Source: Nageia nagi (Eukaryota; Plantae; Pinophyta). From it: DNA of 64,000 nucleotides. Location: assembly GCA_050084985.1 (NCBI GenBank), contig JBITNC010000002.1, positions 3,286,001 through 3,350,000 of the forward strand. The letters run 5' to 3'. Of this stretch, positions 7,570 through 55,260 are shown one piece after another (the first letter of the stretch is position 1; every line of letters begins with the position of its first letter). The notes below the pieces were generated by a model. It ran no database searches. It was given only the letters and a program-made list of their open reading frames with translations, and had not been told where the DNA came from. Both the position numbers and the translations under genes were made by a program.

Positions 7570-9000
7570 GGGCGTACCAATTTGGATGTGTGCTTTTTCA
7601 CTATCTGGAAAGCATGCGAATGGGTTCTTGATGGCCAAAACACATCACATAGTCAATTCTAGGCCAACAATGTTTTATTTGGAAGGTTCAATTCATCATT
7701 TCACATTAGGGCGCATGGATTTGGATGTGTGCTAAAGCATGTGCTACAAAGCATGCGCCTCATACCTTCATGTAACAAAAAAGTGGACCCTAAGATCCAG
7801 CTTGTCCCTTAAAAATGATTGATTGGTTGCATAGGCACATCCTCAATCCCTTATTCCTCCTTGGTGCACCAATTTTGATGAGTCCTTAAGCATGTTCCAG
7901 AAATAGTGCGATTGGGGGGGCTTAATGCAAAATGAAATGAAGTGGTAAAATGACAAAAGGGGTGACTTAATATATAGTCTTCAAACTTGCCACATGTCAT
8001 CCTCTGGTTGGTTGAAGAAAAGGTTAAATGATGGAGCCAAAATTATGGGCGCATTGTTTTGAGGACATGCAAAAGCATGTACCAAAATGCATGCGCTAGC
8101 CACATTGTGTTCTCCAAAAGGACTTAGTCACTTTTCATCGTACTTGAAAGCTTTTATATCTTGGTTGCACCTTTTGAAAGGGGTGCAAAAGCATGTGCCA
8201 GAAAACATGCGCCTAGCTCTTCTCCACTTGGATTTTATACTTAAACAAATTTGACCTTGGGCCAGGATGTTTGGAGACGGGCACACCAATTTAGGTGAGT
8301 TCCTAAGCACACACCAAAAATCATGCACACGGCGTGTGGCACACCTTCCAATGCAAAGGATTAGAAAATTAATGAAAATGACTTAAAATTAATGATCCAG
8401 AACAGGGTGCACGTTTTAAGGGACATGATTTCGTGACTTGGCTTTGCATCGGGCTCCAAATTCAACCAAACAATTTGAATACTGGGGTGAACCTTCCATT
8501 TATAGGCTTGCTAAGGGTGGACAAGTGTCCTGATGTGATAGGTGCAAACAAAGGTCCAATGCATGTGAACACACTTGTCAAGCTTGGGTCCAACACTTAG
8601 CCGAATTTTATACCTCAAAGTTGGGCGCACCGATTTGGGGACATGCAAAAGCATGTACCTTAAAACGTGCGCTTGGCCTTCCTTTTTTCGCACAACTTAA
8701 AAATTTTCTAAGTATAGAGACTTCTCAATGATCTTTGTCGCATTGTTTTGGGGACTTGCAAAAAGCATGTCCCTCAAAACATGTGCTTAGGCACAAAATG
8801 CAAATTTTCCTTCAAAATGACTAGAATGATCCTCAAAATGGAATGTAATGGAGGGGATGCAATCTTTTATAGTATGATAGATATGAAAAATGCAGTATTA
8901 AGACTGAAAATGCAAGACTAACTTCGAAATATGCAGCATAAAGGAAGGCGCACGTTTCAGGGTACATGCAAAAGCATGTCCCTCAAAACATGCGCATAGG
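7570..9000. repeat. Array of ~50-bp palindromes in copy A (core ACATGC-AAAA-GCATGT, outer GGCGCA/TGCGCC arms)
   Basis: For example 8946-8998 aggcgcacgtttcagggtacatgcaaaagcatgtccctcaaaacatgcgcat. Similar units near 7570, 7710, 7862, 8048, 8165, 8280, 8625 and 8737. Confidence 0.85.
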
Positions 9001-9176
9001 CACAATGACACTTTTTCGACTTGTTTTCATCATGACAGTGCAGACCTTGTTATGTTTCCTCTTTCTAATTTAAGATGCATGCATTTCCTTGAAAATTTTC
9101 TTCCATGTCTTTATGCTCGAGTTCTTGAGAGTCCTCAAAAGTGCAAATTTTTTGGGGGTGTTGTGCAGGCACAACA

Positions 9177-19219: not shown

Positions 19220-20459
19220 GTTTCTTTTTGTCCTCTTTGCAAACTCTTCCTCGTGCTTTCTTTTATCAAAGATTTATTGAATTAGCAAAGGAATTATGTT
19301 TTTAACCAGTGCATTACTCTGCACAAAAGCAAACAAAAGAATAATGCATATATATATCCTGCCAGAGATCAGGTTAGTGAAAAGAGTTCAAGATTTATTT
19401 AATCTTGTTAATGAAAAATTGAAATAAAAGACTTGCTTTATTACATTCCTTAATTAAGTATAAATACAAGAGATGTACTCACCTCAAGTATACAAATAGA
19501 TAAAGGCATTATACTCACCTCATGTACCTAAAAATAACATATATCTATAATTAATCACTATCCTAGAATTAACCACTAACCTATGATTAACCACCATGTA
19601 CTTGTTGTGCCTGCACAACACCCCCCAAATTTTTTGCATTTTCTAGGATCCTCATACAATTGAAAAGCATGACATGAAAATTTCTAAGTCAAATGCATGA
19701 GTCTCAAGCAAGAATGAGGAGAGAAGTGGCAAAAATTGCATATTTTGATGAAAACAAGTCCAAAACCCATTATTTCTCCTAGGCACATGTTTTTTAGTTA
19801 GTGCTTTTGCACTCACCAAAAATGGTGCGCCTAGCCTTATTTTGCACTTACCATGACCAACTCTGCATTTTTGTGCTTAAAATCATGCATCTTTCATGTC
19901 TGCTTCACTCCCCATCATTAAAAACATGGCATTCTTCTCATTCCATATCATTCTATGAACATTCTGGTCATTTTTGAGAAGTTTTAGCACTTAGCATTTT
20001 TGGACTCTGTGTAATGAAAAAGCACTCTTAAAATTGTGCGCCTAAGGGAATGGAACATTTTAGTACTTAGCATTTTTGGTAAAATAGCTTCAACCCATGT
20101 TTTATGGGGAGTGCAAAAGCACTCACACAAAATGGTGTGCCTACCTTTCATGAGCATAAAATTTGACTAAGTGTTGAAAATTTGGAGCATTCATTGTGGG
20201 GTAAACAAGTGTCTCACCATGCATTGGGCCTTCATTTGCATCTATCAACATGTGACACCTGTACATTTGGAGACGCAAGCTATAAAAGGGGGTGCTGTGC
20301 CACCCCCCAAAATTTTTTCATTTTGAGGACCCTCGAAATAAAAGAACAATGCATGGAAGTAACGTTTGTCTAAGGGAATGTATATATTTTGGTCTAGATT
20401 TAGGAAACATGTTAAACCTGTACATTCATGGTCAAGTCAAGTCAGAAGTATGCATTTTT

Positions 20460-21855
20460 ACTTAGTCACATGTTTTGAGGGATGTGCCTTTGCACACCTC
20501 CCAAACGGTGCAACCAGCCTCATGCTGCATTTTCATACTCATTACTTGCATTTTCGGTTTCAAAATTGCACTTTTAGGGTCCCTCATACTGTAGAAGTTC
20601 GTTTCTCCCTCATTGCATTTCATGTTTAAGGTCATTTTGGCCGGAATTCAAGGCAAAATGTTTTCAATCATAGGCATGTTTTTGAATGAATGCTTTTGCA
20701 CCCACCCAAAATGGTGCGACCAGGTTGGAGCCTTATACTTGGCATTTTTTTTGGCAAAACTTGTCGCATGTTTTCAAGTGAGTGCTTTTGCACCCATCCA
20801 AATCCATGCGACCAAGGAGGAAGAGATTTGTACTTAGCTATTTCGGAACCTACAAGGCCTGTCACATGCTTTCAAGTGAGTGCTTTTGCATCCATCCAAA
20901 TCCATGTGACCAGGAGAAAAGGGGGACTTAGCCATTTTGAGGCAATCAAGGCTAGTCGTATCCATTCAAGTGAGTGCTTTTGCACCCAACTCAAACCGTG
21001 CGACTATATTCATGAGGTGAAAATTGGCTAAGTGTGGGGTCCAGATTGTTGCCAAGTGGAAACACATGCATTCGATCCCCTCTTGCACCTATCATATGAT
21101 GACACCTGACCTACCCGGAAGGCTTGAAAAGGAAAGTCAGCCTTAGTCATTCTATTTGCAAAATTGTTTGGAGCATTGCGTGGAGCCAAGGGAGAAAAAG
21201 CACGTCCTCCAAAACATGTGACCTATGTTAGACCTGCATTTTTTAAGTCATTTTTGGAATTTCTAGTCTCAGGAGGTGTGCCAGAACCTAGGCGCAAGGA
21301 TTAAGGTGCATGTTTTTGCACCCTTTAAAAACGGTGCGACTAGGAATTGAGCTTCATTGTTGACTTGAAATTTGGCTAAGTATCCAAGACCCTAGTCACA
21401 TGCTTTTGCACCCCTTTAAAACCATGCGCCGCTATTTTTGCTCCACCATTTGATCCTTAGCTTGACCAACCCAAAGGTGACACATGGCAGCATAGAAGGT
21501 TATAAATATCACGCTACCCCTTAGTCATTCTTACCATTACATCTAAGATTTTTCACCCTTCCCCCAGTCGCACCATTTCTAGCGCATGCTTTTGCACTCA
21601 TCTAAAACAATGCGCTAGGGAGAAATAAGGAGTCTAGAGGGCCGTTGTGCATTCAAATAGCTTGTTTTTGGCTAAAGCATTCAATAAAGCCCCAAGGTCA
21701 TGGTTCATGCTTTTTGACATGCTTTTGCACTCATCCAGATTCATGCGCCCAAGTGTGAGGTGAAGAATTATACTATGAAATTTGACTAAGTGACCCAAGG
21801 CCCAGTCGCATGTTTTTCAAGCAGTGCTCAAGCACTCATCCAAAACTGTGCGCCC
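20460..21855. repeat. Array of ~50-bp palindromes in B2 (core GAGTGC-TTTT-GCAC(T/C)C, outer GTCGCATG/CATGCGAC arms)
   Basis: For example 20763-20812 gtcgcatgttttcaagtgagtgcttttgcacccatccaaatccatgcgac. About a dozen related units. Confidence 0.88.
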
Positions 21856-21861
21856 AGAATT

Positions 21862-24830
21862 GCAAGGTCAAAGGTTGATCAACGCTAGAAGAGAGGAGTT
21901 CCTGCCTATTGTGGCCAAGCTGATCACTCTCTTATCTAAGGGTACTGGTTAGGAGAATGATACTAAGTATAGGAGGGAGTTCATGGGCTTCATGCAGTTA
22001 TCAGCTTGAGGAGAGCTATTCGATAGGCTGGGGTAATTAGTGATGCCCTACACCACCAGTTAGCTTATTTTGGCTCGAAGAGATTTTATATGAACCCTAT
22101 CTTTTGTACCTGTTACTGCATGGCAAGGTTAGATCCATAGAGCTATTCGATGAAAGATATCTAGGACAAAAGAGCACCCCCGTGTGGCAAGCTTATCCAA
22201 AGTGGTGGTACCAGAACAAGTTCCAGCATTTTTGTTAGAGAAATGACTACTGGGAGGATGATATCTACAAAGATATCAAAGGGGAGTCCATGGTTAAGAG
22301 GATTTTTGATGCAGCCGTCCAAGCTATCAGCATACATGCAAATTTCTTCCTGCAGAACGCTGACCATACATTCATCAGAGTCTATGGCTCAGAGGAACAA
22401 CCCCTACTCTTGCCAAGATATGCTGGTGATAGGCTCGTACTGATTGAGTTTGCTAGGCAACTCTTGTTCCTGAAAGAGAGTTTGGAAGAAGAAGAACGCG
22501 ACCATTAACTTGCCTATTTCAATAGCAAGATATGTGTTTCAAACGTGGGTTGAATCAGCTAGTATGAAGGAGCTGTAGCAGTATGCCTTTTCCAAGTAGG
22601 CAACTGCAAGAAACTATGATCCTAGGGGCATAATTGCACATTTCTATAGCAATGCATTCCACAAACCTATTGCGTTTTTGCATCAGTCTTTTGGGAGTGT
22701 GGAGAAGTACCGAAATGTGCAGGATGAGGAGATTGCAAAGATAGATGCTCTTCTGAGCAATAAAAAGGCTCCCCTTCAGGAAGAAAAACCACCTTAGAGA
22801 CCTCGAACGACTATGTCTAGATCTAAGGAGGTCCCTCTCAGGATCAGGTCGTCTCCTTCTCTTGCTCATACTGCATCTCTACCAGTCAAAATGTCTTTGC
22901 TTCCTGTTGGAAAGAGGCAAGAGGCTATGAGGGAATACATTTTGGACCCTAGCAAGCGTAGTGTAGTAATGGTTGATCTTAAGGAGGTTGGCTATCGCGC
23001 TATGCCCTTGGATGTGCTGGATAATGTAGTAGGTGAGGCTTGTGCTAGTGATTCACCCACATAAGCGGTTCCTTTTACGCTCACCCATTCTCTTGGATGT
23101 AGAGAGAAAGTCCCTTCTTTGCAACTAAGCTCTAGTTCCAGTTCTGAACGTTGCACTTCCTCTTCCGATAAAGAGATTGATGAAGAGCTTGACCATACAG
23201 TAGAAGACTTCAGAGAAGAATCGAAAAACTGTGGTGGAAGAGAAGAAGAAGAGGAATATGATGATGACGATGCTTCCATTGTTCTTGAGCAAGAAGATGT
23301 AGCCATAGGTGCCTCTGCACCTGATGAGACGGAGATTGAAACTCTCCCAGATGACAATGAGATAGTGGATGTTGGAACATATGATGATAACGTACAGATC
23401 GTTGGAGAAAAGTGTGCTACAGAGGTGGGTGCCTCCAAACCCTCTCTTGCCGAGAATAGGAAGAACTCCCCTTCCTCTTCGCACAAATTCTCCACAAAGA
23501 GGACGAGCCATGAGAGATCTCCTTAGCCACGCAAAGGTATATCTATAGGCGGTGATGGGGAAGATGAAGAGGATGAAGGAGAAACTGAGGGTCAAAAGAA
23601 GAAGAGAAGGCAAGAAGAGCACCAAGGCAAGGAGATTACCATAATTCAGACCACTCTAGCGAAAGAGATCAAGAAGATCAACAAAGGATGATTGTTGGTT
23701 CCGAGATTTCCCCCCCAGCCAACAATTGAGCATCCAAATCTTAACCAAGATGCTTGCCTTAGAGCCCTCAGCATGAGTACAAACTCATGATGAAGATATA
23801 GACCAGGATTTGCACTTCGAAGATGAGGAAGTGGAGCTTTCGAATGGTTAGAAGATTCGAAGGGTTGACACGTTTGTCTCCACCTTCCAAAAGGAACTCT
23901 CCATCAGCCATTGCTATTCAAAGGAGAAACATCCTCAGAGAGCTAAAGACTGTGTCATCGAGACATTCAAGATGCCCATGAAGCTAGGATTGACAACTCG
24001 TAAACATATAGTTACTCAAGATGCTGTAGTCATGGAGCAAGAGGGGTATGAAGCCAAGAAGGAGGTGAAGAGGTTGAAAAAGGAACTCACGGCTAGCAGG
24101 ACAATCATCAAGGAGTTCCAGAAGGTCAGTACCACCCACTTAGATCTGTAGAAGCAAACCTCCTTCCATGAGGATGGGAATTGATGAAGGAGTAGCTGAA
24201 GAAGGAAATGATGGAGGCTATTGAGAGATTGTCTTCTCGAATTTACAAGCTCCTTGCTGAAGGTGTGGAAATCAGGGACCTTAAGTCGCAGATCTCAACA
24301 CACCTAAGCACGTTGAATAGCCATCTTCCCAACGTCTCCTATATGCAGCATATTTACGTTGACAATCCTGAGAAGTTAGTCTTCTACAAGTTCACATACC
24401 ATCATGATTGGTTGAACCACGCACTTGAAAAGTGCAATGCGGTCCTGAAGATCAGAATCCCCTTGAGAAAGGAGGTTGAGCAACAAATGTGTGAATATGC
24501 CTATCAGCTCAAGTTCCAAGGGGAGGACAATAGTGTGAGAAAGGAGGCGGTATTCGCAGAGGCTCAGAACCTGATATAGGAGCATCTTGACATCGATGAC
24601 CTCAGTTTGCTAAAGGTAGGGCATCCTATCATCCATGACAGATGGATGGTCATCTGGAGGCACCAGATGCAGGCTACATCGAAGAAGATAAAGGACTACG
24701 TTTGACATAGTGGCAACACCGTTGGCATGATTTTCAGGGGTGTACGGAATACTGTGGCGTTCTTGGAGGAGACCATTGAGTTGTATGGTCACACCAATTA
24801 GGAGTGGAACTCCGCTAGTATCAGATTAGA
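21862..24830 (+). pseudogene. Degenerate accessory ORF of B2 (N-terminus deleted)
   Basis: HTFIRVYGSEEQPLLLPRYAGDRLVLIEFARQL, acidic linker QLSSSSSSE..., C-terminal helical part at 24208-24579. Collinear with the ORF of copy A. Confidence 0.78.
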
Positions 24831-27800
24831 TTTGGCCTAGGTCTTATCCACCTGCAGATTCTGTTTGCGGTATCTTTGCTTTTGTTTAGATGCATATTTG
24901 ATGGTGGTTGTTATGTCAGACTCTATTTCACTCGATTTGATTGGTGTAGGGATGAGTTTTTGCTGCCACCACATCGAATTTGTTAGATTCACTTATGACT
25001 CTGACCGGTGCAGGGATGAGGTTTTCCTCCCTCCGGTTCAGATGTCAGACTTTTTCATTGCATATCTGATTTACTTTTGAGTAGCTTAGAGGTAGATTAA
25101 ATGCATATAAGTTGTGGCATTTATATTTTGTCAGATTTTTAAGTGCCACTTGCATCGATTCATGTTAGCAATCTGATTTTGTATTGGTATGTGTGTTGCA
25201 TGTGTGCACACCATATCAGATTTGATGCCTTTAGGGAAACACTTTTAGTGGCCTATTTATACCCCATCCTGACCATTTAGAAGGGGATTTTGCATTCGGG
25301 ACTTTTGCACTTGGAATATTACATGATATTACGCATTTTGGCATATGTGAGACTCTGCACTTAATAGAAATATTGCATATTGAGGATCTTGCATTTTGGG
25401 ATGCTGGCTACAAACTTTCATGTGTAAGAATTTCTTAGTTGTTGCATCTGTTATAACTGAGGTTTACTGTATTTCATATGAATGCAAGGGTTTTTCTACA
25501 TATGTTTGGTTTGTTGCATCTTTAAATTTTTACATTCTATTGCATAGAGGTTCGTTGCATAAGAGGTTCGTTGCATGTTCATCATTGAATATCATTATAA
25601 ATGTATTTCTTTTGAGGAATGAGATTATAAAGTTAATATTGTGAAGGATATCATTTGTGGGATCATGCCTATATGAATAACTTTCCCCTTGGAGTTGTAT
25701 ATTGAATATTCATTGAAGTGGTTTGAGTTTATCTTTGCATGGTTTGCACGTAAGTGAATGTATTTTGAGGCTCATAGCTTGTCTTTATACCATTTGGTTA
25801 GGTTCTTGTGCTCACACCCTCACCTCATGTATGCCTTCCCACTGAGTCATCCACCAAGACCCTACAACTTCTTGCTCTCGTCTGGTAGTGATTTGAGTGC
25901 ATATTACTTGCCCAGCTTGATAGTGAGTCCATTGACCTTAATGAATTTGAAGATGACCTGCCGAGACAGTGCATCACTAGTGATACCTTCATAAGTTCAT
26001 GCTTCCTTGTATTCCTTTGCATTTATCCCTATGTTTGTCCCTAAATTTGTAATATTTCTTCGCTTTCATTGACATTTGTAGTCTTTCCTTATTATGGAAA
26101 AGAATTCCGGCATTGTATTTCCCTTGTATACGGTTAACAACATGCATGTCTAACTATTGTGCCTTCAAGACCATATTCCATGTGAGCGCTTGGGGTAACC
26201 AGTCCTTTCAGGTGGAAACAAGTAACGTTGTTTACTCTAAGTCTTGTGCATGTTTTGGACTAGGAAAGAAAAACATTCCAACAGGGGGTCATTCATTTTA
26301 TGTGCATTTTGGTCAAATAACTCCATTGTGTGTTATGTTTTGCATGTATTAAGGAAAGACACTACTTGAAATTGGTAGGCCTCACTTCATAAGATCATTT
26401 TGAACCATTTTTTTGGAAATTCACTTTACTGGCACCATTTAAGGCACCATGAAAGCTAGGCGCATGTTTATCAAGGGGTGAAAAAGCACCCATCTAAATT
26501 GGTGCGCTAGCCTCTTGGATGTCCAGATCCGGGACCATGGATTTTGACTAAGTGTGAAATCTTGCATCTTGGACCAGGCGCATGTTTTCTAAGGAGTGCT
26601 AAAGCACTCATCTATTTTGGTGTGCCTAATCTAAGATGTAAAATCCATGTTAAATTTTTTTAAGTGCTCCTTAATCCCAGGTGCAAGGATTTGGGGGAGT
26701 GCAAAAGCACTCATTGAAAATGGTGCACCCATAACCAAAGGGTCATTTTTGTGAAAGTTTGAAATTGGTTAAGTCTTGAAACACAAAGAGCCCAGGTGCA
26801 TGGATCCAAAGGGTTGAAAAAGGACTCGCCCAAAAAGTTGCACCCCTCAATTATTGCACATACATTGGACCAAGTTTTTGACTATTCCCAAGGTGACATG
26901 TGGTATAACCCAAAATTATAAATATTAGATCACCCCTTGCATTTCACTACAATTCATTTTGCTTAAGACTTCCAAGTAGCACTATTTCCAGACATTGAAA
27001 AGGACTACCACAAAATCGTGCATCCAGGAGGAATAAGGATTTTTGAGATCATTTGACATCATTTTAAGCCTTTTTTCTTGAAAGATGAGGGTAAGCTTGA
27101 TCAAGCAAAGCATTTTCTGAAAATTACTTCATTTTTTCTTGCATGCCTACCCAACTAACCTAGGCGTATGATTTCTACATAGTTCAAAAGGACTCATCCT
27201 AAGCGGTGCACCAAGACCTAGAGTGGGAAAATTTGACTAAGTATTACAATTTCAAGTTCATTTCATTCCCTTTTCCTTCATTCATTATAAATGATAAAAA
27301 TTTAAGGTGTAAGGTTTTTGTGTAGTGAAAAGGGATCCATCCAAAATGGTGTGCCCTAGCATGGAGTAATGATCAAACCATCCCAAATGAGAAATTTTGT
27401 TCAAAGAGGGTAAAAATTGATTGAAGTGATGTGTTCCTCTAGCAAGTACTTAGGTGCATTATTTTCTCAATGTGAAAAAGCACCCTTCTAGATTGGTGCG
27501 GTATAGGAAAACTGACCTAAAAATTGACTAAATGGTGGATAGCCAGGAGTGAAGATATCAAGTTGACAAGTGGCACCTATGCATTGTGCCAAGCATATAC
27601 GCTCCATGCATTCTCCATAAAAGTGGTTTCAATCCACTTTTTGTAGGACGTTTCAACTATCCCAACCTAGATGTCTGGTCAACTCCCACTGCCACAAGGA
27701 CACTTCCAGAACTGTGCGTCTAGCCCAACTTGGCCCTTTTGAGACATTTTGATCAAATTTCAGACCTGTTCTCACTCATTTGCTAGGAGGATTTATCAGA

Positions 27801-32165: not shown

Positions 32166-35100
32166 TGTTGGTGAGGAAATCCTTCCTACCCTATAGGGCC
32201 TCTAGTAGGTAGGCTTAGCAAAAGAGAAAAGAGTCTCAACGACACCTATGAGTGAGATAGCGTTACCTATCTTTGCTTGAAAAGGGCTGACTACCCCAAG
32301 GTTTATGTGACTTCGATGTTTTAAGGCCTTTCGACTTTAAAAGAGGTCTCGCGTCTCTGAGCAATGATATGTTATTAGCTCTAGTGAACTTGTGGGTTAA
32401 CTCAAATAAGAGGAGGTGGGCATATTAACTCACAATTTTAAATGGACTTATTCAGGGCTTGCATCGATGGAAAGTTGCAGGGTTTTAAAAATGGGAAAAC
32501 AATTAAAATGAAAGTTGAGAATGATCTAAAGGAACTTGATGCACGTATCAACTATTTGCTAGTGTTATAGGGTCCTGAAGATCTATAATCCGAATTTATT
32601 GAGAAAGTTCATTCATTCATCAAATATAGAAGCACACAACATGAACACTCAAAGTACAACTATAAATGAGCCAAAAGGAGAACATGAGCTTCAAATATAG
32701 AAACAAACAACATAAATGACCAAATTACAACTATAAGTGAGCCAAGTGCAGATCACTAAACTTCAGATATCACGAGAATAATTCACCATCACACATTTAT
32801 GAATGAATGTTTTTACTCAAATGTCATAGAAAATAGATATGTTCCAGAATATAAACATTTAGTATGCAAGCTGTGGAAATAATAACTATTCATAAACTTC
32901 GAAAGATGATCATTCAGCTTTCCCAAAAAACTTGTAGTTTTCAAAGGAAATGAGCTTAAGCTAATGAATAGTTATGAAAAGACAACATCTCATAAAACAT
33001 CCACAAATCCAAAAGGAACAAACAACATTACTTGCATTAACATCACAAAAACTCTAGAACAAGATTGTTGAATAGTATAAAAGCTCTAGAGCAAGTTTCT
33101 CTCTAATCCATTCTGCTTCAAAATGACCCTGTGGAGGGTACTTATAGCACAAATGTTTGACAACAATAAATGTATGTGTTGCCCTAATACAACTACCAAC
33201 ATTAAATAAAGTGTTACCCTAATGCGGCTACAGTAGCCCTATGATGGTTGAAGAGCCAAGAAAGTTCTAACAACAATAAATGAATTGACATAAACCTAAT
33301 TGAAATATAAAGTATTACATATATTGAGATTTGAACATGTGGGAGAAAAAACTCATCATCACAGTTCAAATAAAACAACTTTTTAAAACATCACCCCTAT
33401 TCATGTATTTAACAATAAAATAATTCAATAGTCACTCCTTCATAAACTGGTTCCATTCATTATTTGAAATATTGCAACTTTTGTAGTTGAGATTAATGAA
33501 CACCACTTGTTTCAGAAGTTCTTATTACAACACACTCATCACCATGCCGATCCTTGGACGGTATTCATCAATCATATTGGAAGTAAGCCCCATTTGGTAT
33601 CTTCAAATGGTTGATGTGCTATCATGTTGGATTATCCTCACTGTCTTGATGAGGTTCAATTCTCTAATCTAGAGGAGCTCTTTGATCCAGTTCTTTGTTT
33701 TTGTAGTCACCTCTTCGTTGCTTTTAGCATTGCCATCTTATTTAAGAAACTGTATCCTCACTTGGTAGGCATCTATATGTTGCCAAACTTCCCGTTTCAA
33801 TTCCGCCCTTACATTGATCGAATATTAACATTTGTCAATCGTGTATTGTAGCCAATCATATTGGACAAGAATTTAGTGTAGTAGTTCATCTTTTTAGGTT
33901 CATCTCCTATGGACATCTTTACGGCCTTCTCCAATTTTGTCTCCACTTGGAATTATTCATGGTTTGTTTCATTCCCCTCACTTCTTGGATCTTGAAAAAC
34001 GACCTGATTTGGAATTTTTTTTTTTTTCTTTTTTTTTGAACTTGAAACTTGAATTTCGCTATCACAATATAGGTTGCTTACTTCTTTCTTGAAATCTCAA
34101 TGTCCTAGAATCATGCGACCTATCAAATGTCACTTCTTTTGGTGTGCCAACTTAATATTAGTGCTCTGAAATACTCACAAACTAGGATGCTTATTTTATT
34201 TTCTTTGCTTTTGCAACTTTTGAGAAATGTGTGACCAAAGATGCCTGGCAAACTGTGTGATACAAGTAAATTCTAGGATATGCAATGTGAGGTTTTCTTT
34301 GAATTTATAAGTCTTAGTGACATGCGGTAGTGTGCATGCTCCAGATAGGCAAGATCTAGACATTTGGCAGGAGGATGACAACAAATCAACAATCTAGAAG
34401 CGGTTGCATGGTTTTAGGAGCTTGATTTTGCAATGTTATAGAAATGTGCGACCTAGGCATCCTTGGAGAAGTGTGCGACAACCTTTAAGACTTGGAAAAT
34501 TTGTGCAAATGCAATATGGTCCATTTCTTTTCCACTCCTTTTTGCTTTGTTACTGGCCCATCTTTGAGTTTGGGTTGTTTCTACTTGGTCGCTTATTTTT
34601 AGTCCCTTGGATTAGCATAAATCTGAAACCATGCGACCAACCTTGGTTTTGAAAATGGACCTTTATCCTTGTTGCTGGCCAATCTTTGAGTTTGGGTGTG
34701 TTTCTACTTGGTCACTTATTTTTAGTCCATTGGATTAGCATAAATCTGAAATTGTGCGACCAACCTTGGTTTTGAAAATGGACCTCTATCCTTGTGCAAA
34801 TGAAGCAAGGGAACTACTATAATTTAGGTCGCATGCTTTGAATTGCAATGTCTTGAAATCAAGCGACCGCCCTATATATTAGATCGCATGTTCTTTGGCA
34901 CTTGATTCTTGTAAAGTCTTGAAGCTGTGCGACCAATCTATTCCTTCAAAACCGAGCGACCAACTTGGATTGTAGGCCCTGCAAACAAAGAGTGAAATGG
35001 TGATGCCTTTATAGGCTTGAGAGGTTGCTGAATCTTGATCGCATATTCTTGTAAACTTGAATTGGCAATGCTTCAAAATTGAGAGACCAATTCATATTCT

Positions 35101-36004
35101 CAAAACTGAGCAATAAACTTTAAACTACTTTCATGCAATGAAGATGTTATATAAGTTGAAAGCCCCCTTTGATCCAAGTCGCTTGTTTTAGACAATGTCT
35201 TGGTCGCACGTTTTGATCTCCTTGCATTTAGATTATCTTGAAATCATGCAACCAAGTATACTTAGCCAAATTTTGAATGTGAATGATGTTTCAATGTTTC
35301 ACTATAGTTTAATAAACATATGGAGGCACGTGGCACCTTTCCATTAGTTGTTATGATCTTCAAAAAGTGGTCGCATGATTTGGAGGACTTGGGTTGGTGG
35401 CATGGTTTGGAGGTCTTGCATTTGCATCATTAGGAAACTGTGCGACCAACTTTGGGACTTAGAGTTTTATGCCAAATTAAGGTCTACTTACTTTTTTATC
35501 ACTTTCAGAGAACACCTGTCAGTATTGCGCTGGCTAAAAGCAATAACAAAGTAGGTCACACACTTTTGGAAACTTGAGTAGGTTGCACATTTTGGAGGCA
35601 TTGCCTTTGGCATGAAAGTGAAACCATGCAACCAACTTGGAACTTACGAAATTTTCTACTACAGTGAAACCTTCATATCTTTTATAGCATTTGATCGACA
35701 CATGGTCTTCATTGATTGATTGGGACCAACTTGCAATAGGAGGTCGCTTGTTTTGAGGTCCTTGAATGAGGTCGTACGTTTTGGAAAACATGCTTTTTTA
35801 ATGACTTGGAATAATGCGACCTAACCTTTTTAGCTCCAAAATGTTTCAGAGTCCCTTTTCTTTAAATTATTTGCCTTCATTCTTCAAAACTTCTCTTTCA
35901 AGATTCTCACTCTTCCATCTTCGCCAAAGATGTGACTCCTTTTTTGCAAAAGTAGGGTCCTCAAAATTTTCAAAAAATTTGGGGTGTGTTTTGCAGGTAC
36001 AAAA
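32166..36004 (-). mobile_element. Giant LTR-like unit, copy C (internally deleted, 3839 bp), inserted in the hAT transposase
   Basis: TGTTGGTGAGGAAAT at 32166, degenerate hairpin GGGGTGTGTTTTGCAGGTACAAAA ending 36004, TSD GATTA/GATTC. GGTCGCATG...CATGCGACC array at 34110-35825. Confidence 0.8.
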
Positions 36005-45693: not shown

Positions 45694-47456
45694 GTAACAA
45701 CCGTTCAACATTGATCACACTGCAATACAATACCAAACACCTGTGAGCTTCATCACTGCAGTATAATACACAGAGGTCTTCAATATTTTGAATAAATATA
45801 TTAGGTTATGCTTCTAATTTCTTCTCCCTTTTACTTTGAAGTTTTCAGTTAATTACAGCTGCATTTTAAATTGTTTCTCTTCTTCAATATCTTGTTTATT
45901 TACCTAAATTCAAATAGATGGAAATTCAAAGGTGTAAGAAAACAGATACTATGGTGATAAAGTATAAATAAAGATGGTATTCCTGAAAACCATGTTTGAA
46001 TTTCATAATCTCTAAAAAAATAGATGCAGATGGCCATTGATGAACCATTCTTTGTTCAAAACTTTGATCATTATGGATTGAGTTCTTTTGGATATGTTGT
46101 TTGTGAAGGTTTAAGAAAATGATATTGTTTTTAAAAGATAAATCTCCATAAGTGTTATCAGATATTTGCTAGTCTTGGGATGGAGAGAGCTTGTTTTCTG
46201 TTGGGATGCTTTTCTTTCCCGAGCAAGACACTCTGAATATCGCACGCGGAACTTAGGAGATCCCAAGCAACATAGTTGGGAATGCGTTACCAATTCCCCT
46301 GTTTGAAAAGGATTGGGTAACTCCAAGGCTCTTGTTGAAATGCTTACTCGACGACCTAACGTTATGACGTTCAAGGTGTGCTCGCTGAGCTCGTTTATGG
46401 TCTAGGGATAGATAAATAAAAAGAAAGTGCGGTATCCCTCTTTGGAATCAACCTCAATGGAATGGAATGAGAGGTGTGTAGCCTGTTAACCAATGGTGTT
46501 TTATTCTTTGATGTATAGAGTTTGTTCAAAACCTTTGTGTGTGGACTTAACGATTGTATTTGGGTATGAAAGCATAAAGATAATACTGTAAAAAGTGGAG
46601 GACAACACCTTGGAGAAAGAAAGGATACTTGGTTGGATATGAGTTCGAGGTTCACTGACGGGAAAGTGTCTAAGAGTTAATCTCTTCCGAATCGGTTAAG
46701 GGCTCTTCATCCAATTCATCCAACCTTGCAAGCAAACGACTTAGCGTTCGAATTGCTTCGAACAGGAGTGGGAAGGAATGCCAATTGTCGGTTCTCTACG
46801 AATAGGACCGATTCAATTAAATGGAAATGGAAGGTCTCAAAGTGAAAGGATCATGGTTTTGGATGAAGGACCTAGCAAGATGTCATGGAAGTAGAAATTG
46901 ACATAGAATACCCAATCAACTTGCGTGTTAAGGACCAAGCAACAAACATAGGTAAGCTACAAACACTTGTTAAAGTTTTTTAGAGATAACTTTCCTAAAG
47001 CTTGAGAGCTTTCAAAGGAATAAAACGAAAGTACACAAGCCAACTATGAGTGCCTTCAAAGAATCAATCTATAACACCAATATGAAAAGTATCAAACTCA
47101 AGTCTTTGCATTAACCACTTTGTACTAAATTTTGAAAAAGGAGGTGCCAAAATTTACAATAAGCTCTCAATTCTCAAAATATCTCTCTTCAAGCTTGAAG
47201 TGTTTGCTTCAGAATGAAGTCCTTACAAAAGTGAGACCCTTGGTCTCTTACTTATCGAGTTTTGGAAACCCTAAAGTGACTTTTGAAACCCTAGAAATGA
47301 GTTTTAAAACCCTAACCCTAAGTGTAACACTAACAATTATTTACAAGCTAATTGAAAATGCTAATTAAGATTACAATTGGACTTAGTGGAAATCCACTAA
47401 GTTGGCCAAATATTTGGCTTACATATCAAAAACTTGCAAAAATAAATCCCTTTCTA

Positions 47457-50400
47457 TTATGGCAATTGTGGGAAGATGCCTTGCACGTTTGTGGCGATTT
47501 TGGCTTCAAAGTCATCTCCATTGAACGCTTCTACGTTCTTGATGGCGCGATGGATTGTCTGGAGGGCTCCTTCGTTTGATAGCAGGTGCTCTAGGATGGC
47601 CTTATTGGTTTTGACCATTTCCTTGCACAAATCAGCCAATCTCATCTGTCTTGTCATCTGTTTTCTTGTCTTCAGGTTGTGTGGATCCTCGGGACACAAC
47701 TGCTCTGCAATAGTGGCGTGGATCATTGTCATCACTCTCATATACTCCTTAATGCTGCCTTTTTCCTCAAACAAGGGTACCTGGAGTTCATATTCCCTTA
47801 CTTGTTCACTGATAACGGCCTTGAGTTGAGTTTTGTTGTATATGAAGTTGGTGGACTTGGCTTTGATGTAGAACAAATAATCATACAATTGGAACCAATC
47901 TATGCAAAAATCTAGCACCAAAGGATGATGGGTTGCCCTTCTTCGTAGGTCAAACATTGTAGGATACCCACTCTTCCACCTGATGATCAACTGGTCTATT
48001 TTCTTTGCTTGAGAATGCGACCCCTCCTCCTCAATATAAATATTTACCATGCTTGAGTGGAGTGCTTTGATAGCTTCGATAAGGTCCTTGTTCCATCCTT
48101 GTTTCAGAGCGACAATTCTAGTATTTAAGTCAACCTGCTTTTTGATGTCTTCAACTGTCAAATTAGCAACCTTGACTTCTTTGTCAATCATTTCTTGACT
48201 CGTCACTTTCTTCTTCAGCTTTTGGATCTCTAGCTTTAATAAGGTATCGGATTCCCTCAATGCCCGTGCATTTGTGATGATTCTGTGTTCCATTCCCAAT
48301 GGGCGAACAATCTCTGTAGGGGCCTCTTTTGTTTCAATTGTGAGGGCAAACTTTCCGGTGCCAGCCTTGTTCTTTCTGGAGTAGAGTTTGTCCTCGTAGG
48401 TGACGTTACCTACACTGGTTGGTGAGACTATCAATCTGCTGAAGTTCCTCATTTTCATCTTCGGAATCTTCTCCTTCGCAAGGGTGATTTGAACTCAAAT
48501 TAGCCATCACTGCAGCCATATCGAAGTGGGGTTCCATGGGTTGTTTTCTATAGGGAACCATCTCTTCGTCTTCGATGATCTTGACATCATGCTCTACTTG
48601 TCTTCTTTTTCTCCCTTGTTCTTCATTTTCTCCCTCATCCTTTTGATTTCCATCATCTCCCCGTGAAGATGATGCCATTGTCCTGGGTCTGTAAGTACCC
48701 TTCTGAGCTGATATTGTCGTAGTTCTCCGAGATGGTGGCGCTTGTGACGTCTGTTTCTGAAGAACGGATTTTGGGGTGCTTGCTCTTGCTGCTTGCTGTA
48801 CAATCATATTAATTGAGGGATTGCCCTCGTTAAGGATCTCTACTGAATGATCAGTGTCGACCCTATCAAAGGCAATATCTTGGGTTATCTCCATGTCTGT
48901 GTTGATGACTGCAGTAAGATCCATCTCTTCATCAGACTCTGATGAGTCACTTGGTCCATATTTGTCGGAATTGGATGATGATGTGTTGGGGTTTTGATTC
49001 AGGCGCATACCACTCCGATTCAAACCTTGTGGGAGATTTATCTTTTTCTGCAAGTCTTTGAATGGTTGAGAGATCAGGCCTACTCTTCTGAGGTCCAGGA
49101 TTTCAATCCTCTAACTAATGACAGTTGTTTCAATGGTTTGTCCGAGGATGCTATTGGTAGCATACTACCTGTTTGGTCCTTAAGCCAGGGTTACTAAAGT
49201 GGATATTATGGGAAAAACATACCCATGGCTTGGGGGTACGGAGACTTGTGCATTGGCTCTTAACCTGGTAGCTTCTTTGGCTCCGTGCTGTTTTTGTTAT
49301 TTTTTCAGCTCCTTGTGAATCTATTGAACCTACAGGGTGTCCTGAATGTTCCTGTACCTCTCAATGCTACAAAGGGATTGGTGTGGATATGATGAGCTCC
49401 ATGTCTTTTGGAAAAATGCATCAATTACTCCATCGGGATCATAGTGATCCGCAACTACTTTGGTTGGAAACTCATACAATGCCAACTCTTGTTTAATCAT
49501 GTCAATCTGTTGCCAGTTGGTGCATTCATAATTTTCGATGACGATAGGTAATTGGTAAGTGGTCGCCGTCTTCTTTACCCATACCTTGTCATGCATGTTT
49601 AGCAAGTGTCTTGAAAATTCCATGAGGATGGTACGATCACTTGCGTAATGGGGTAGCTTATAAGGGGCTTCTTTGGAGACATAGACCTTGTGGTAGGTGA
49701 ACTCTATGTCTTCTGCAAAGAAGTCTTCATGTCCCTTGATAGCAGCAATAGCCTCATTGGATATTCGGAGTACATTGGCTTTGCCCATGATCTCTTTGTA
49801 AATTTTGCCTTCAAAACTGTCGGTCATTATCTTCCAGTTTCCATTGTTCCATTTGTTATGAGCAAAGAACCGTGGGTAGTTTTCCCACACTGGATGTGTC
49901 GGGTCATAAAGATACTAGTTATTGGTGATTGAGGTTACCCTCTCCCTTTCGTGAAGGAGTACGTAAACCAGGTAGGAGTTCATATAGACTTTCGTGCTCA
50001 TTTGGATATTTTTCAGTTGTTGAGCCAAAAAATCACTAATTACTCTACTCCACCTTATGCCTTTACCATTGCTGATCAACTCTATAAACCCTGCGAATTC
50101 CGGTCGGAATTTGGTGTCGTCTTTCTATCCAGTCACTCTGGAAAGCATTGATATTAGTCTGGAGACTACTGGATAGAATTCTTCTCTGTTTGGCATTGCT
50201 AAGGCTCTCCCTATGAGATGTTTGCGGTCATTGGCCAACCAATCTCTGATCAAATCAGCTGAAGGTTTCAGACTTTTGTAGAACCTCATGGAGTCCTGTA
50301 CGCTGTCTGATAGGCCTTCGTTTTTCCAAGCGAACACGTTCTCTATTCCTTCCTCAGAGAAGTCCATGATTACCTTGTTCCTTATGTTGAGGAGTCTCCG

Positions 50401-50716
50401 CTTTTTGATGTCACAATGCTTTCCTAGCTCGTAACACAGCTCAGGGAAGGTGGTGGTGAATGGCACCATAGAAGCTGTTACTAGTAAGGAGGTTTTCAAA
50501 GTGTCCTTCACTAGTGAAGATGGATCCAATGCTTGTATTTTCATTAAAGTTTTTATTGGATCGAAGGAGTTACAATTTGTCCCCGATCTCGCTCGGCTGG
50601 TCAATGATTCTTGCGGCAGGCATCACTGGCTCTGTTGTGTGTTCGAGTGTGATGAGACTGTCCATTGTGAGCCTTTTCTGCTTCCTGTCTTTGATGTTCT
50701 GAGCGACTAACACCAT
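47457..50716 (-). pseudogene. Accessory ORF of copy D, ~1085 codons with a few stops/frameshifts; unknown function
   Basis: ORF-track pieces 50125-50604, 49330-49890, 48406-49053 and 47457-48458 are collinear and share motifs with copies A/B (FPELCYE, MDFSEEGIENVFAW, YASDRTILMEF, HYDPDGVI). No gag, PR, RT, RH or IN motif seen. Confidence 0.8.
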
Positions 50717-51949
50717 TGTGTTCTGTGTCAGAAAACAACAAGAGCTAGAAGAGTCTTGGGAAGCTTATGACACTTTCTAGGCAAGCAAAGAGGGGTTTTT
50801 GAAAAATTTAGATTTTTTGGCGTTTTTCACTCTAAGTGTGCCATCATCGAAAAGTGTTGTAATTTAGGGATGACACAAAGGTAACTAGCTCAAAGGGGGA
50901 TGCCTTGGCAAAAAATTAGGATGTTTGGAGAATTTTCAACTTTTTTCTCAAAAAAGCTGACTTTTTTAATAGGAAAAAGTGGTGAAATTGGCAAACGGTG
51001 CTGGAATCAAGTTTCAACACCTTGGATGGGAAATGAGTGGAGAAGGTGTTTTAAACTTTGAAATGGCTAAAAGGGACTTCAAAAACAATTTTTGGAGTTT
51101 TTGGAATTTTTTGTCAAGAAATGAGGATTTTGAGCACTTAGATCTTGGATCATATGTTATTTTTTTTGTTGAAATTAGAAGTTGATCACATGGATAAAGG
51201 GTATTCAAAAAAGTGATCAAACTTGAGATCTGGAAAAATAAATTATCAAGTGTTTGAGTGTTGGGAAAATGGGGTTTTGGTGAAAAAATCCTCAAAACTT
51301 GAAAAAAAGAAGTTCATGTGAATGCAGGATGCTTGGATTTCGAATTTTAAAGGAGTTTGGGTGAATAGAAATGGTGCTAAGTGTTCAAAAATATCCTTCA
51401 AGACTGAACGTTGACTTTCTTTCTCACTTGGCTCCCAAATTCTGAAAACTTTGGGCAGCATAAGGGTGCAAAAATGAGAGTGGTGAAAAATGGAGGGGGT
51501 ATGGCTGTATTTATAGGCTCAAGGGGTCAAAAGGTGCCACATGTCAACACCTCATCAACCCTAGAGCTCCAAACTTGCATTTTGGACCTTTCTTCCTCCT
51601 TGCCAACGTTGGGAAACATGGAAAAAAGGCCAAACCTACGCCTAAGTGTGGAAGGAGCAGATTTGGTGCAATGTGGGGGGTCTTGGAAGCAATAATGATG
51701 GCCTTTGGATGCTCTTCAACCTCCATGTTTCAAATTTGGATTTCAAATTTTGAGATTTTTGTGGAAAAATCCAAATTTTTTGAGTTTTCTCAGCCTTTGA
51801 ATCCCTTTTGAATGCAAAAAGGTGGTTTTTGGGAGTTTGTATGGGCCAAAAGGCACAAATGATAGGTCAAAATGGTGGTAGAATCACACCACCTATCTCA
51901 TAGAGGCAAAAAATTGCAATTTTGGACAATTTTAGGGGTCAAGGAGGCC

Positions 51950-53330
51950 AGGCGCAGGTTTTAGGAGTTTAGGCAAGTTTTGAAAAAATGGAAAAATGGG
52001 GAAAACTTGCAAAATTGCCGCCTAACTTTTTGAGGGGCTAAACTTGATTTTTTTGCAACATTACAAGGGGCAATGTTGATCTCCTTTGAATTTGACACCC
52101 TACCTTTCTTTCCAATTTTGATTTTGAGGATTTTTGAAAAACTTGGAAAATTTTCAAGCTCTCCCATTGGCTGATCCAAATTTTGTCATTTTGGGGGAGT
52201 AGATCCACTTTTTAAAAAAAACTTAAAACATGAATGATGTGCAAAATTGGATTTCCCATGCTCCTAGGATCAATGTTTTTGAATTTTGAGCAAAAATGAC
52301 CCTTTGAGTGCTAGGCACAGGTTTTGAGGGTCTTCGCATGTTTCGGAAAAATTGGAAAGTGGGGGAAAAGAGGCAAAACTGCCGCCTAGGTTTTTGGAGG
52401 GGAAAAATTAGTTTTTTTGCAACATTGCAAGAGGCAATGTTGCTCTCCTTTGAATTTTGCACCTTAACTCACTCTGCTTTTTTGATTTGGCCAATTTTGG
52501 AAAATTTGGGAAATTTTTGGAGCTCTCTCATTCGCCAATCGAATTTTGATGATTTGAGGAAGTAGATCTCATTTTTTTCGAAAACTCAAATCATCAATCT
52601 TGTGTGAAATCCCATCCTACACCCCATGAAGATCAAAAATTTTGATTTTTTGGAATTTGGAATTTTGGGGCACAAGAAGGGTAGGCGCAGGTTTTGAGGC
52701 TTTTGGGGTGTGTTGGAAAATTGAGAAAATGAGGGAAAACACCCAAAACCAGCTCCTAACTCTAGGAGAGACAAAAATTGTCCAATTTTGAAAATTCCAA
52801 GAGGAAAGGTGCCTAATTTTTGATTTGTCACCCTACCTCTTTCTTAGATTTTCATTTTGACACTTTTGGAATTTTTGAAATTTTGGAGCACCCCTATTGG
52901 CTGTCCTTTTACTCATTTTCCCATTTTTTCACTTTCGGTGGAGCAAAACTTGTCGAAATTGTGAACTTGAAAGACCAATTTGATGTAGAATTGCGATCCC
53001 CACACTCTTGAGCTCAAAAATTGCCATTTCGGATCAATTTGGGCCTTCCAAAAGGTAGGCGCAGGTTTTGAAGAGAATAGGCCATTTTTTGAAATTAGAC
53101 TAAGTGAGGGAAAACTTGCAAAACTCCCCCCCTAACTTTTCAGGGGTCAAATATCAAGTTTTTTCGGTATTTCCAAGAGTAAAGTGGCCTTAATTTGTCA
53201 TTTGGCACCACACCTCTCTCTCGGGTTTTCATTTCGAGCATTTTGAAAAAACTCATTTTTCTGAGCTCAACCTGAAGCTTCTTGAATGCCAAAACGCCTA
53301 TTTTTTGATTTTGGCCTTCAAGGGCGCTCA
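51950..53330. repeat. About four ~365-bp tandem units in copy D, each opening with GGCGCAGGTTTT...AAAA(C/T)TGC inverted arms
   Basis: aggc(g/a)caggtttt at ~51950, 52313, 52683 and 53057. Reverse arm caaaa(t/c)tgccgcct at ~52011 and 52374. Confidence 0.8.
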
Positions 53331-54178
53331 AACTTGCTTTCCTCTTTCATTTCGGGCTATATTGCACATTCCTAACTTTTCCTATCTTTTACGGGCCCAA
53401 ACGATGCATCTTTGGCCATTTCCGACATTTTCGGGCTCTAAATATGCATTTTGACCATTTCCGGACCTTTTCAAGGTCAAAGGGTGAAAAAATGATCATT
53501 TTCGACATTTCCGTCATTTTGAGCTTAAAGTCTACATTTCTGGTCTTTTCGGGCTCTTCCTAGCACTTTGAGCTCAGTCTTGCAATTTTGGTCATTTTCA
53601 GGCTCAAACCGTGCAAAAATGCACATTTTTACTATACTGACCACTTCCGAGCTCAAAATTGACCAAAACGCACTTTTCCGTGCTACTGACCATTTTCTGG
53701 CTCTTCGGGCTCAAAATTTACAAAAATGCACTTTTTGGTTGTAGAAGCCTTTTCCGGGCTCAATTTGTACAAAATGCGCATTTTCTTCATCTTAACTGTA
53801 TCCACTGCTCCCGGGCTCAAACCTGATAAAAAATGCACCTTTTGTCGCCTTGGCACCTTTGTTGCTCAAACTTTGCCAAAATGACGTCTTTTCTATCCTG
53901 GTGGCCATTCTTCGAAATTCCACTATCTGGTTGCTGTCGTGATCCACAACTCCATCCTGTGAGATGGTACTTGACCGGGCCTTGACTTGGCCGTTGGGTG
54001 AGCCGAACTCTATTCATGACTCTAGGGCATGCTCGTCTGCTACTTTGATCATCTAGCCATTCTGGGTCTCCATACTAACCGTAAGTTGATCATGCCCAGG
54101 CAATGTTGCTCATTGCCGTTTGCAAAAAATTAGGTCCCCAAAATGCTACATCTTGGGGTGTGTTGTGCGGTCACAACA

Positions 54179-55260
54179 TGTTCTTGATCCTTAAAAGCAC
54201 TAATCAAGCTCTACTACAAGTTCATTGAAGAAAGACTTTATTTATTGTTGATGTGGGTGTCATGGCCAACAGCTGTCCCTATTCTAGAATTCATTGAACA
54301 AGATTGTGATTATTGAGGCATTGAAATGAGGACCTCTATTAGTAAATATTAGTGGGATGTAGTGGATTCTGGTTATGATGAGCCAACAAATCGACACATT
54401 ATTCCTCAAAATGAATGGAAAGCTAAGAAGGATGCAAGAAGAAAAACCTTTTGGTGATGTACCACATTCAATCAGCTCTTCATAAGAGCTTATTTCCACA
54501 AATTGTTGATCCAAAATCAACGAAGGATGCTTGGAATTCTCTAAAAGAGGCTTTCCAAGGCAATGATCAAGTAAAGGTTGTTGAGTTACAAATATAAAAA
54601 AGAGAGTTTAAGAATCTAAGAATGCAAGAATTGGAGTTTGTGAGTGGGTATTGTGTTGTTAAAGATGAGGTCACTAAAATTTCCATTCTAGGAGAAAGAT
54701 TGGAAAAGGAGGTTGTTGTGAAGAAAGTTTTGAGAAAACACCTAGGTGGAACTATGTAGCCATAATTATTCAAAGAGTGTGCTGAGCAAGATTTTACCTA
54801 GGTGTTATGCATGGAGGGCTTCACGTTCAATCCAGCTTGTTCATTCCAATATTTGTGGTACTATGCAAATTGAAAGCGTGGGTAAATGCTCTTATTTCAT
54901 TGCTTACATTGATGATTTCTTTAGAAAATATCAGGTTCAGGTTTTGAAGAATAAAGGTGATGCATTGAGTTTGTTCAAGACTTTTAAAGCTTATGTGGAG
55001 CATGAAGTTAATCTAGATCAAGTCTTTGAGGACTAACTAGGGCGGAGTATTGTTCTAACTCGTAAGAAGTTCAAACAGTTTTGTCATGACAATGACATCA
55101 AGAGCCGACTGTTGTTGAAATGACAAGGAGCATACTTCAAAGTTAGGGGTTAAACAATTCCTATTGGACTGATGCAGTTGCTATAGCAGTCTATATTGTC
55201 AATAAGAGTCCAACAAGTGTTCTAAAGAATATTCTTATTGAAGCATCGCATGGAACGAAG
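54179..55260 (+). pseudogene. Decayed Ty1/Copia gag and integrase relic
   Basis: DAWNSLKEAFQGNDQVKVVELQI*KREFKNLRMQE (UBN2-type gag) and QLVHSNICGTMQIESVGKCSYFIAYIDDF (integrase core). Confidence 0.85.

Follow-up and report, generated by a model that had tools for sequence, protein, structure and literature searches.

Candidate giant solo LTRs carrying a ~1000-codon gene in intron DNA of Nageia nagi

About half (~50%) of the window, a 64,000-nucleotide stretch of intron DNA from Nageia nagi, is made up of seven related mobile units of 3-8 kb. These are probably solo LTRs, likely of a Tat/OTA-type Ty3/gypsy element, in which an accessory gene and motif arrays have moved into a 7-8 kb LTR. Integrase-type ends, 5-bp target site duplications (TSDs), the absence of a mobility enzyme and an internal gene shaped by purifying selection together fit gene-carrying solo LTRs. 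An earlier note on this DNA had proposed gene-carrying solo LTRs, a reading that is partly supported: no pair of units around gag-pol was seen.

Results

Units and subfamilies

The relatedness of the seven units (A, A', B1, B2, C, C' and D; Table 1), claimed in the earlier note, was borne out by shared termini and ORF pieces; its minimum of four subfamilies likewise agrees with array motifs and similarity, which separate A/B, A'/C', C and D. B2 is 72% identical to A. The single layout with a long ORF described for all units holds only for D, A and the 5'-truncated B2: the ORF is absent from A' and reduced to remnants in C, and B1 and C' are truncated. Unit D, previously taken to start at 46098, starts at 46199; position 46098 gives a TSD matching at only 2/5 positions and falls in an older Copia remnant, which D interrupts. 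Thousands of contigs, from 4/4 runs, cover D from end to end, so D is a coherent high-copy repeat; contig depth was not used as a copy number. The same window contains, at 56073-62252, an LTR element from another family that likewise lacks gag/pol.

Table 1. Positions of the units and of the features of unit D (coordinates of the window)
Feature	Position	Strand or orientation	Details
Unit A	1..9176	ORF on minus strand	left end beyond window; interrupted by A'
Unit A'	3540..6603		ORF-less derivative, A'/C' subfamily; TSD 3/5
Unit B1	19603..~28170	opposite orientation	truncated within ORF; interrupted by B2
Unit B2	20293..26283	opposite orientation	TSD GGGGG 5/5; ORF without 5' part
Unit C	32166..36004		TSD GATTA/GATTC; ORF remnants faint
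Unit C'	37192..~39870		left end and 3' part of ORF; truncated; sits in hAT remnant
Unit D	46199..54178		7980 bp; TGTTG...CAACA termini; candidate giant solo LTR; covered by contigs
D TSD, left copy	46194..46198	+	TTTTC
D non-coding tail	46199..47320		~1.1 kb; carries family left terminus
TATA-like site in D tail	near 47250
AAACCCTA repeats in D tail	47261-47315
Decayed ORF of D	47457..50716	-	~1085 codons; putative start codon
N-terminal domain	49294..50538	-	~415 aa, conserved; mostly helical predicted fold, pLDDT 88
CTATAAATA TATA box and pyrimidine-rich patch	51508..51516	-	ORF sense
Subfamily-specific arrays of D	51900..53890		~365-375-bp unit x4, then ~50-bp units
D terminal double hairpin	54136..54178		CCCCAAAA..TTGGGG, then TGTTGTG-N4-6-CACAACA
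D TSD, right copy	54179..54183	+	TGTTC, 4/5 match

Termini, target site duplications and terminal hairpin

The TGTTG...CAACA-type termini reported earlier recur, as TGTTG...CA(A)CA-type ends, at 4/4 units having both ends. A left terminus TGTTGG..TTTCTTTCC/TCCTTCC is common to the 5/5 left ends present, and a double-hairpin right terminus to the 6/6 right ends present, with B2 and C showing decayed versions; inverted repeats at the unit ends extend over 5 bp only. The claimed 5-bp TSDs were found at B2 (5/5), C (4/5) and A' (3/5), and at D, where the earlier note had found the TSD unclear, the corrected start yields TTTTC/TGTTC. Over the 4/4 complete units 16/20 TSD positions match (P ~8e-7), and windows of 4, 6, 7, 8 or 9 bp fit worse than 5 bp.

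The terminal double hairpin is the best-conserved part across subfamilies. Across 10 ends 93.5% of its cells are paired, and G-U pairs are present on both strands; covariation was not above that of shuffles (190/500). Contig cover drops off at 54178, and over the terminal 45 bp it is far deeper than over the rest of D. The GGGGTG preceding the last 18 bp was considered as a PPT followed by a mini-LTR and rejected: it is an arm of the conserved hairpin, and the 18-mer is not repeated at the left end.

The ~1000-codon gene

The D ORF comprises an N-terminal globular domain, an acidic/disordered middle and a C-terminal part, and is decayed by eight in-frame stops in the main frame and two frame changes. 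Homologous ORF pieces are present in A, B1, B2, C' and D, and faintly in C. Judged from its sequence, the D ORF evolved under past purifying selection: dN/dS, which the earlier note had suggested calculating, was 0.10-0.19 in the 7/15 copy pairs with unsaturated dS, including 811 codons of A versus B2, the remaining 8/15 pairs being saturated in dS. The 384 homologues include one named from Taxus chinensis, and natural 1010-aa forms exist.

The ORF family is unnamed, and its predicted fold is confident and, by Foldseek comparison, novel. The ORF had no Pfam match and the N-domain model no PDB or BFVD match (Foldseek); nor did that model match RNase H/DDE, HUH or tyrosine-recombinase folds or show an integrase-like fold. 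P0104, a natural homologue of full length, likewise lacked an RNase H/DDE or other PDB/BFVD fold match; coiled coil and disorder are predicted for its C-terminal half. P0021 gave no usable match in the ESM Atlas. For PMD, DUF1985 and Transposase_28 (PF10536, PF09331, PF04195) there was no Pfam match in the ORF or in six frames of D, and these domains were absent among 25 listed of the 53 families matched by the 150 alignment members. The ORF's helix-hairpin-helix start and conserved W-helix may resemble those of PMD/DUF1985/Transposase_28 proteins.

The earlier statement that the units lack gag, pol and transposase motifs was upheld in six frames of D, where no such Pfam match, including RT, was found. 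With no mobility enzyme detected by Pfam or by fold, a unit needs an outside integrase. Could the ORF itself encode the mobility enzyme, as a transposase or recombinase with a new fold, so that the units are autonomous DNA elements binding the arrays they carry? Strong purifying selection, the novel predicted fold and conservation at a few acidic or His columns (D367 0.92, E307 0.86, H386 0.85, E37 0.82) would be in keeping with this. We regard it as highly improbable, since there is no invariant catalytic triad among the 150 aligned members, the conserved columns are mostly hydrophobic core, and RNase H, HUH and tyrosine-recombinase matches are lacking. TG..CA ends with a 5-bp TSD are, moreover, the signature of an integrase. 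Against the features of DDE transposons (Ginger, MuDR, CACTA, hAT), the units encode no DDE transposase/integrase and their TIRs do not extend beyond 5 bp.

Promoter-like sites and arrays

The CTATAAATA TATA box is likely the ORF promoter. The TATA-like site of the tail points toward the hairpin in A', C' and in the second L004 unit (L004b; L004 is described below), and in the ORF sense in C; the TATA-like sites are thus compatible with either LTR polarity, on which the earlier placement of the gene in U3 depends. Array motifs follow subfamilies: AAAGACAA occurs at 8.6-9.1 per kb in the A' and L004 arrays and at 0 in the other five. The array described as palindromic in all units consists in D mainly of tandem direct repeats; it is the A' subfamily that typically shows clear palindromes.

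Search for a paired copy or a link to gag-pol

As the earlier note had observed, D contains no PBS or PPT, and a terminal direct repeat is absent from it. A convincing PBS or PPT adjoined 0/18 ends examined, a small sample from introns and short contigs: a reverse PBS was found at 0/6 left ends, TGG lay within 5 nt of 1/10 right ends, that one inside another repeat, and two further right ends inspected by eye were also unflanked. In a simple model the chance of seeing no flanked end is 0.0005 at a solo:intact ratio of 1, 0.09 at 5.5 and 0.24 at 10, so that the solo LTR reading requires a ratio of ~5 or more. Contig loose ends behind 54178 agreed at 0.44-0.51, which is chance level, in 4/4 runs (6-10 contigs each); this excludes at least 4/10 contigs sharing one flank and is compatible with 1-3/10. 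Two candidate links were rejected. The Copia gag following D does not have D as its 5' LTR, since D is flanked by a TSD of its own and the PBS-like site of the Copia element is found to the left of D; and a pyrimidine-rich flank at locus L001, considered as a PPT, lies inside another family unit with no pol following.

The unflanked ends, the chance-level loose ends, the single state of 4/4 complete units and the deep cover of the terminal 45 bp, which suggests that this segment is common to many subfamilies, would also be expected if the TSD-bounded unit were the whole element: one of an abundant gymnosperm class that has integrase-type ends and a single conserved gene of new fold, lacks gag/pol and a paired LTR, and spreads as a single unit. 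Without a recognisable transposase of its own, such an element would rely for movement in trans on the integrase of an LTR retrotransposon or on a Ginger-like transposase; the double hairpin would be the cis signal and the ORF a helper or anti-silencing gene. We consider this unlikely. The ends sampled are few and come from introns and short contigs, LTR att sites should likewise be strongly conserved, and there is no ribozyme or other Rfam match (0 matches in the window, hence no retrozyme hammerhead). No route is known to us by which a linear substrate with a single LTR could arise unless a paired template exists, and 5-bp inverted repeats are short for a DNA transposon.

Viral-contig scans found no relative. 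A metagenome pattern scan returned eight loci, of which L002, L005 and L008 were dropped (no family similarity) and L007 duplicates L006. One locus, L004, contains an A'/C' subfamily unit with ORF, array and end; 31 bp separate a right end there from a left end of the same orientation. This arrangement bears on a LARD/TRIM-like parent with two giant gene-carrying LTRs, a short non-coding interior and borrowed Gag/Pol, which would readily become solo. Such a parent would yield a very high solo fraction without gag-pol of its own, and the gag/pol-less element of another family at 56073-62252 offers a parallel. The two L004 units nevertheless belong to different subfamilies, their spacer has no PBS or PPT, and a tandem pair of one subfamily was not seen, which leaves this parentage quite doubtful.

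Discussion

Proposed origin of the units

For the favoured reading, that of solo LTRs, the parent would be an intact gymnosperm LTR-gag-pol-LTR element of >20 kb with the accessory gene in the LTR and not in the internal region. Reverse transcription would have produced its copies and integrase would have inserted them; gag-pol would then have been lost as the very long LTRs recombined, leaving one LTR with one gene copy, and later deletions may have produced the ORF-less solos A' and C. The earlier suggestion that each recombination product keeps a gene copy holds in principle, but A' and C, 2/4 complete units, retain little or none of it. The protein may, more tentatively, be a DNA- or chromatin-binding regulator of PMD/DUF1985 type that recognises the arrays of its own subfamily, as a transactivator or anti-silencing factor that solos would supply in trans.

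The solo:intact ratio of 5.5:1 in Taxus wallichiana (PMC9364684) favours solo LTRs; low removal rates in conifers generally (PMC13477047) count against them, as does a length of 8 kb beyond the 1.9-6.5 kb range of Ogre LTRs (PMC6431247). One current pipeline accepts LTRs of <=3 kb and pairs of <=15 kb (PMC13477047), so elements of this size would be missed. In REXdb, gymnosperm TatII elements have forward eORFs both 5' (23%) and 3' (26%) of the polyprotein (PMC6317226), a pattern that we, though not its authors, take as expected of a gene in both LTRs. Against the reading, Ustyantsev et al. found eORFs lacking from Tat lineage II, and in lineage III a PMD eORF in antisense orientation (PMC4408406); the lack of a PMD, DUF1985 or Transposase_28 match among the 25 listed families counts against it as well.

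If solo LTRs, the units would be among the longest LTRs reported, at 8 kb versus 6.5 kb for Ogre (PMC6431247), and would enclose a full gene, for which we found no described case in a plant LTR in the literature searched. The family fills half of the window yet lies outside common LTR-finder limits; in giant gymnosperm genomes, counts of intact elements, solo:intact ratios and 'unknown repeat' fractions may therefore be skewed. What the extra ORFs of Tat/Ogre elements do, a long-standing question, would also become testable with solos that keep the gene: they bring together a domain predicted to be well folded, intact homologues from nature and candidate target motifs specific to each subfamily. 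Should there be no paired form, the route of mobility would be new.

Comparison with known systems

Genes inside LTRs are familiar from animal retroviruses: MMTV Sag, the HIV Nef overlap and the foamy virus bel region lie in the LTR with their own promoter, are present in both LTRs and are kept in solos. These LTRs measure 0.6-1.8 kb and their genes a few hundred codons. If LTRs, the units resemble them in having a gene there; the proteins are unrelated, and a U3 position of the gene in the units is only putative.

LARDs such as Sukkula, and TRIMs, have two LTRs, a PBS, a PPT and non-coding LTRs. The units, in contrast, lack a PBS, a PPT and a second LTR within them and carry a gene; they resemble LARDs in their putative long LTRs, lack of gag/pol and presumed movement in trans (LARD definition, PMC6431247).

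The VANDAL/VANC and PMD-DNA motif modules (PMC5735166; bioRxiv 10.1101/2024.09.27.615353) likewise pair an accessory protein encoded by the element with neighbouring tandem motif arrays that vary from one related subfamily to the next; in the former, the array motifs targeted by VANC track subfamilies. VANDALs belong to the MuDR DNA transposons and encode a transposase of their own, whereas none was detected in the units, and the ORF of the units has no Pfam-detected DUF1985/PMD homology.

The units share with Tat/Ogre/Retand (OTA) elements a 5-bp TSD and an extra ORF beside tandem arrays (PMC11963269, PMC4408406, PMC6317226) and, in architecture only, a conserved N-domain followed by a coiled coil (PMC11963269, PMC4408406). 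Ogre LTRs reach 6.5 kb, and gymnosperm TatII/TatIII have eORFs; Retand LTRs measure 315-1194 bp (PMC11963269, PMC4408406, PMC6317226). The units differ in having no PMD or Transposase_28 match and no pol seen, and in the position of the gene: the ORF and arrays of Tat/Ogre/Retand elements lie between pol and the 3' LTR, whereas those of the units both lie inside the TSD-bounded terminal unit.

Unit D is a coherent dispersed repeat

Scanning the window for the terminal motif gave five left ends and six true right ends. The left end of D, the unit studied here, is 46199 (TGTTGGGATGCTTTTCTTTCC) and matches those of the related units A', B2, C and C'. The earlier note had begun D at 46098, where only 2/5 positions of a target-site duplication (TSD) agree; a start at 46199 fits the shared left terminus and gives the TSD TTTTC/TGTTC. 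The 5-bp TSD claimed for complete units was borne out (16/20 positions match over four units, P ~8e-7), and other lengths fit worse in these four. Between 5,028 and 13,124 contigs per run aligned to D. D is a coherent dispersed repeat and no chance mosaic, because contigs cover all 30 of its bins in 4/4 runs and cover collapses just beyond 54178. Words of D also occur in runs of five organisms and four air metagenomes; contigs for alignment came from four of the organism runs and one air run.

From the hairpin end, D comprises a double hairpin, arrays, a TATA box, an ORF and a 1.1-kb tail (Table). The hairpin is 93.5% paired over 155 cells at 10 ends, with no excess of covariation over shuffles at these ends. 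Array motifs differ by subfamily, a description rather than a test, as the motifs were picked from those very arrays. The proposed common layout with a long ORF holds for D but not for A', which has no ORF, or C, which retains faint remnants. A' is evidently a deletion derivative, since the metagenome locus L004 joins an A'-type array to a C'-type ORF.

Table. Features of unit D and its surroundings (window coordinates unless a locus is named)
Feature	Position	Strand	Remarks
TATA box of D	51508-51516	ORF sense	
ORF of D	47457-50716	minus	~1085 codons, 8 in-frame stops, 2 frame changes
Arrays of D			four ~370-bp units and ~50-bp units
Tail of D			1.1 kb, second TATA-like site
Host-gene exons	12072-45694		introns up to 16 kb, packed with nested elements
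Decayed Copia halves	46040-46198, 54179-55250		left, PBS-like site; right, Retrotran_gag_2 and integrase-like residues
hAT transposase remnant (DUF659)	36005-37191, 39871-41200		split by C'
LTR element of another kind	56073-62252		LTRs ~1.2-1.6 kb, 91-96% alike; its internal ORFs (141-324 aa) gave no Pfam match
Its Met-type PBS-like site	near 61000-61014	minus	
LTR pieces akin to it	15296-16244, 30127-31370, 41205-44898		also in metagenome loci L003, L006
Degenerate LINE-like reverse transcriptase residues	14086-15250, 16240-16640		seen by eye, LTR piece between; one ORF scanned, no Pfam match
Intronless stretch	L003 1173-2770		immediately past family right end
Same-family nesting or adjacency	3540 (A' in A), 20293 (B2 in TATA box of B1), L001 592/938, L004 4013/4045, L006 751/2050		frequent

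The gene is long conserved

Protein identity between ORF copies is 28-61%. Divergence at third codon positions is roughly double that at the other two, and dN/dS is 0.10-0.19 in the 7/15 copy pairs with unsaturated dS; the tblastx segments used are biased to conserved parts, although A versus B2 spans 811 codons. A profile search of 1.84 billion proteins gave 384 homologues at E ≤0.001, of which 150 were listed; one weak match was omitted and P0146 was removed as a repeat false positive. Two natural full-length homologues, P0104 and P0153, have 1010 and 1018 aa. Ten homologues were looked up and one alone carried a species name, Taxus chinensis; together with the runs that share words with D, this points to a probable gymnosperm host. 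No Pfam family was common to ORF and homologues among the matches listed, no PDB sequence matched, and no acidic triad is invariant among aligned homologues. The N-terminal domain was modeled with confidence (pLDDT 88.1, pTM 0.83); the P0104 model adds predicted coiled coils and a disordered middle. Neither model had a Foldseek match at E ≤0.001. The low dN/dS, the homologues and these negative searches together identify a long-conserved accessory gene with no recognisable integrase, transposase, Gag or reverse transcriptase.

Proposed LTR character and polarity

Integrase-type ends, the 5-bp TSD, and the lack of any enzyme or inner terminal repeat are consistent with an LTR; on the last two points our searches agree with the earlier note, which had read the units as giant solo LTRs with a gene in U3. 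The flanks, in contrast, lend no such support: when a PBS or PPT was sought beside 10 right ends and 6 left ends, one end had TGG within 5 nt, and that one lies inside another repeat; two further right ends, in L001 and L006, were likewise unflanked. Loose contig ends behind 54178 agree at chance level (0.46, 0.46, 0.44 and 0.51 for 10, 10, 9 and 6 contigs). Simulation excludes a common flank in at least 4/10 and is compatible with 1-3, and short branching contigs may mask such a flank. The unflanked ends require a solo:intact ratio of ~5 or more. Longer LTRs are expected to recombine more. The available text of PMC9364684 gives 5.5:1 genome-wide in Taxus wallichiana, but not in Pinaceae. That no paired form exists seems unlikely.

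In A', C' and L004b (one of two family units in L004) the tail TATA faces the hairpin; in C it runs in ORF sense. We lean slightly towards ORF-sense polarity, as in the earlier note, with array and gene as U3 and the tail as R-U5. The opposite polarity, which would make the gene antisense like the Tat eORFs and set the conserved hairpins on the U5/PBS side, is nearly as probable. The gene lies inside the LTR under either. The units are real, abundant and unusual, and likely a new variant of LTR retrotransposon; counting in a LARD-like parent, an LTR-retrotransposon reading becomes quite probable.

The parent would most likely be an LTR-gag-pol-LTR element of >20 kb whose terminal repeat absorbed an accessory transcription unit, perhaps via a shifted priming site; copies would be placed by integrase, then reduced to solos. 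From the layout and from VANC and PMD, we tentatively suggest as the protein's likeliest role that it may bind its own subfamily's arrays and promote transcription or resist silencing.

Genomic setting

The seven units occupy 32,242 of 64,000 bp. The window consists of intron sequence from a plant gene whose short exons are scattered between 12072 and 45694; two carry an Ig_N_CWD1 domain (Pfam), and its peptide motifs resemble those of a plastid alpha-amylase, AMY3-like. D broke an old Copia element, leaving a PBS-like site ~40 bp to its left and Retrotran_gag_2 ~230 bp to its right. The intronless L003 stretch, possibly a retrocopy, bears a motif we take to be SAC-phosphatase-like and had no Pfam match with stops read as X. 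The nesting of family units in or beside one another hints at a target preference.

Comparison with known elements

Comparison systems include MMTV Sag, Nef, foamy bel and Sukkula. Titles and abstract starts yielded no plant element whose LTR encloses a gene; Repbase and subscription journals lay outside the search, so the family may already have consensus entries. We assign the units to neither Tat nor PMD, the defining features being absent or beyond these data. In the available parts of the sources, LTRs reach about 5 kb, TatII forward eORFs lie 5' in 23% and 3' in 26%, and TatIII reverse eORFs 3' in 18% (PMC6317226); PMD occurs in the lineage III eORF, lineage II having none (PMC4408406); PMD-C is similar to VANC's DUF1985 domain (bioRxiv 10.1101/2024.09.27.615353); and PMC13468544 contains nothing about eORFs. 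In Retand, as described in the available text of PMC11963269, antisense ORFs and arrays are internal, between pol and the 3' LTR, whereas those of D sit inside the TSD-bounded unit itself.
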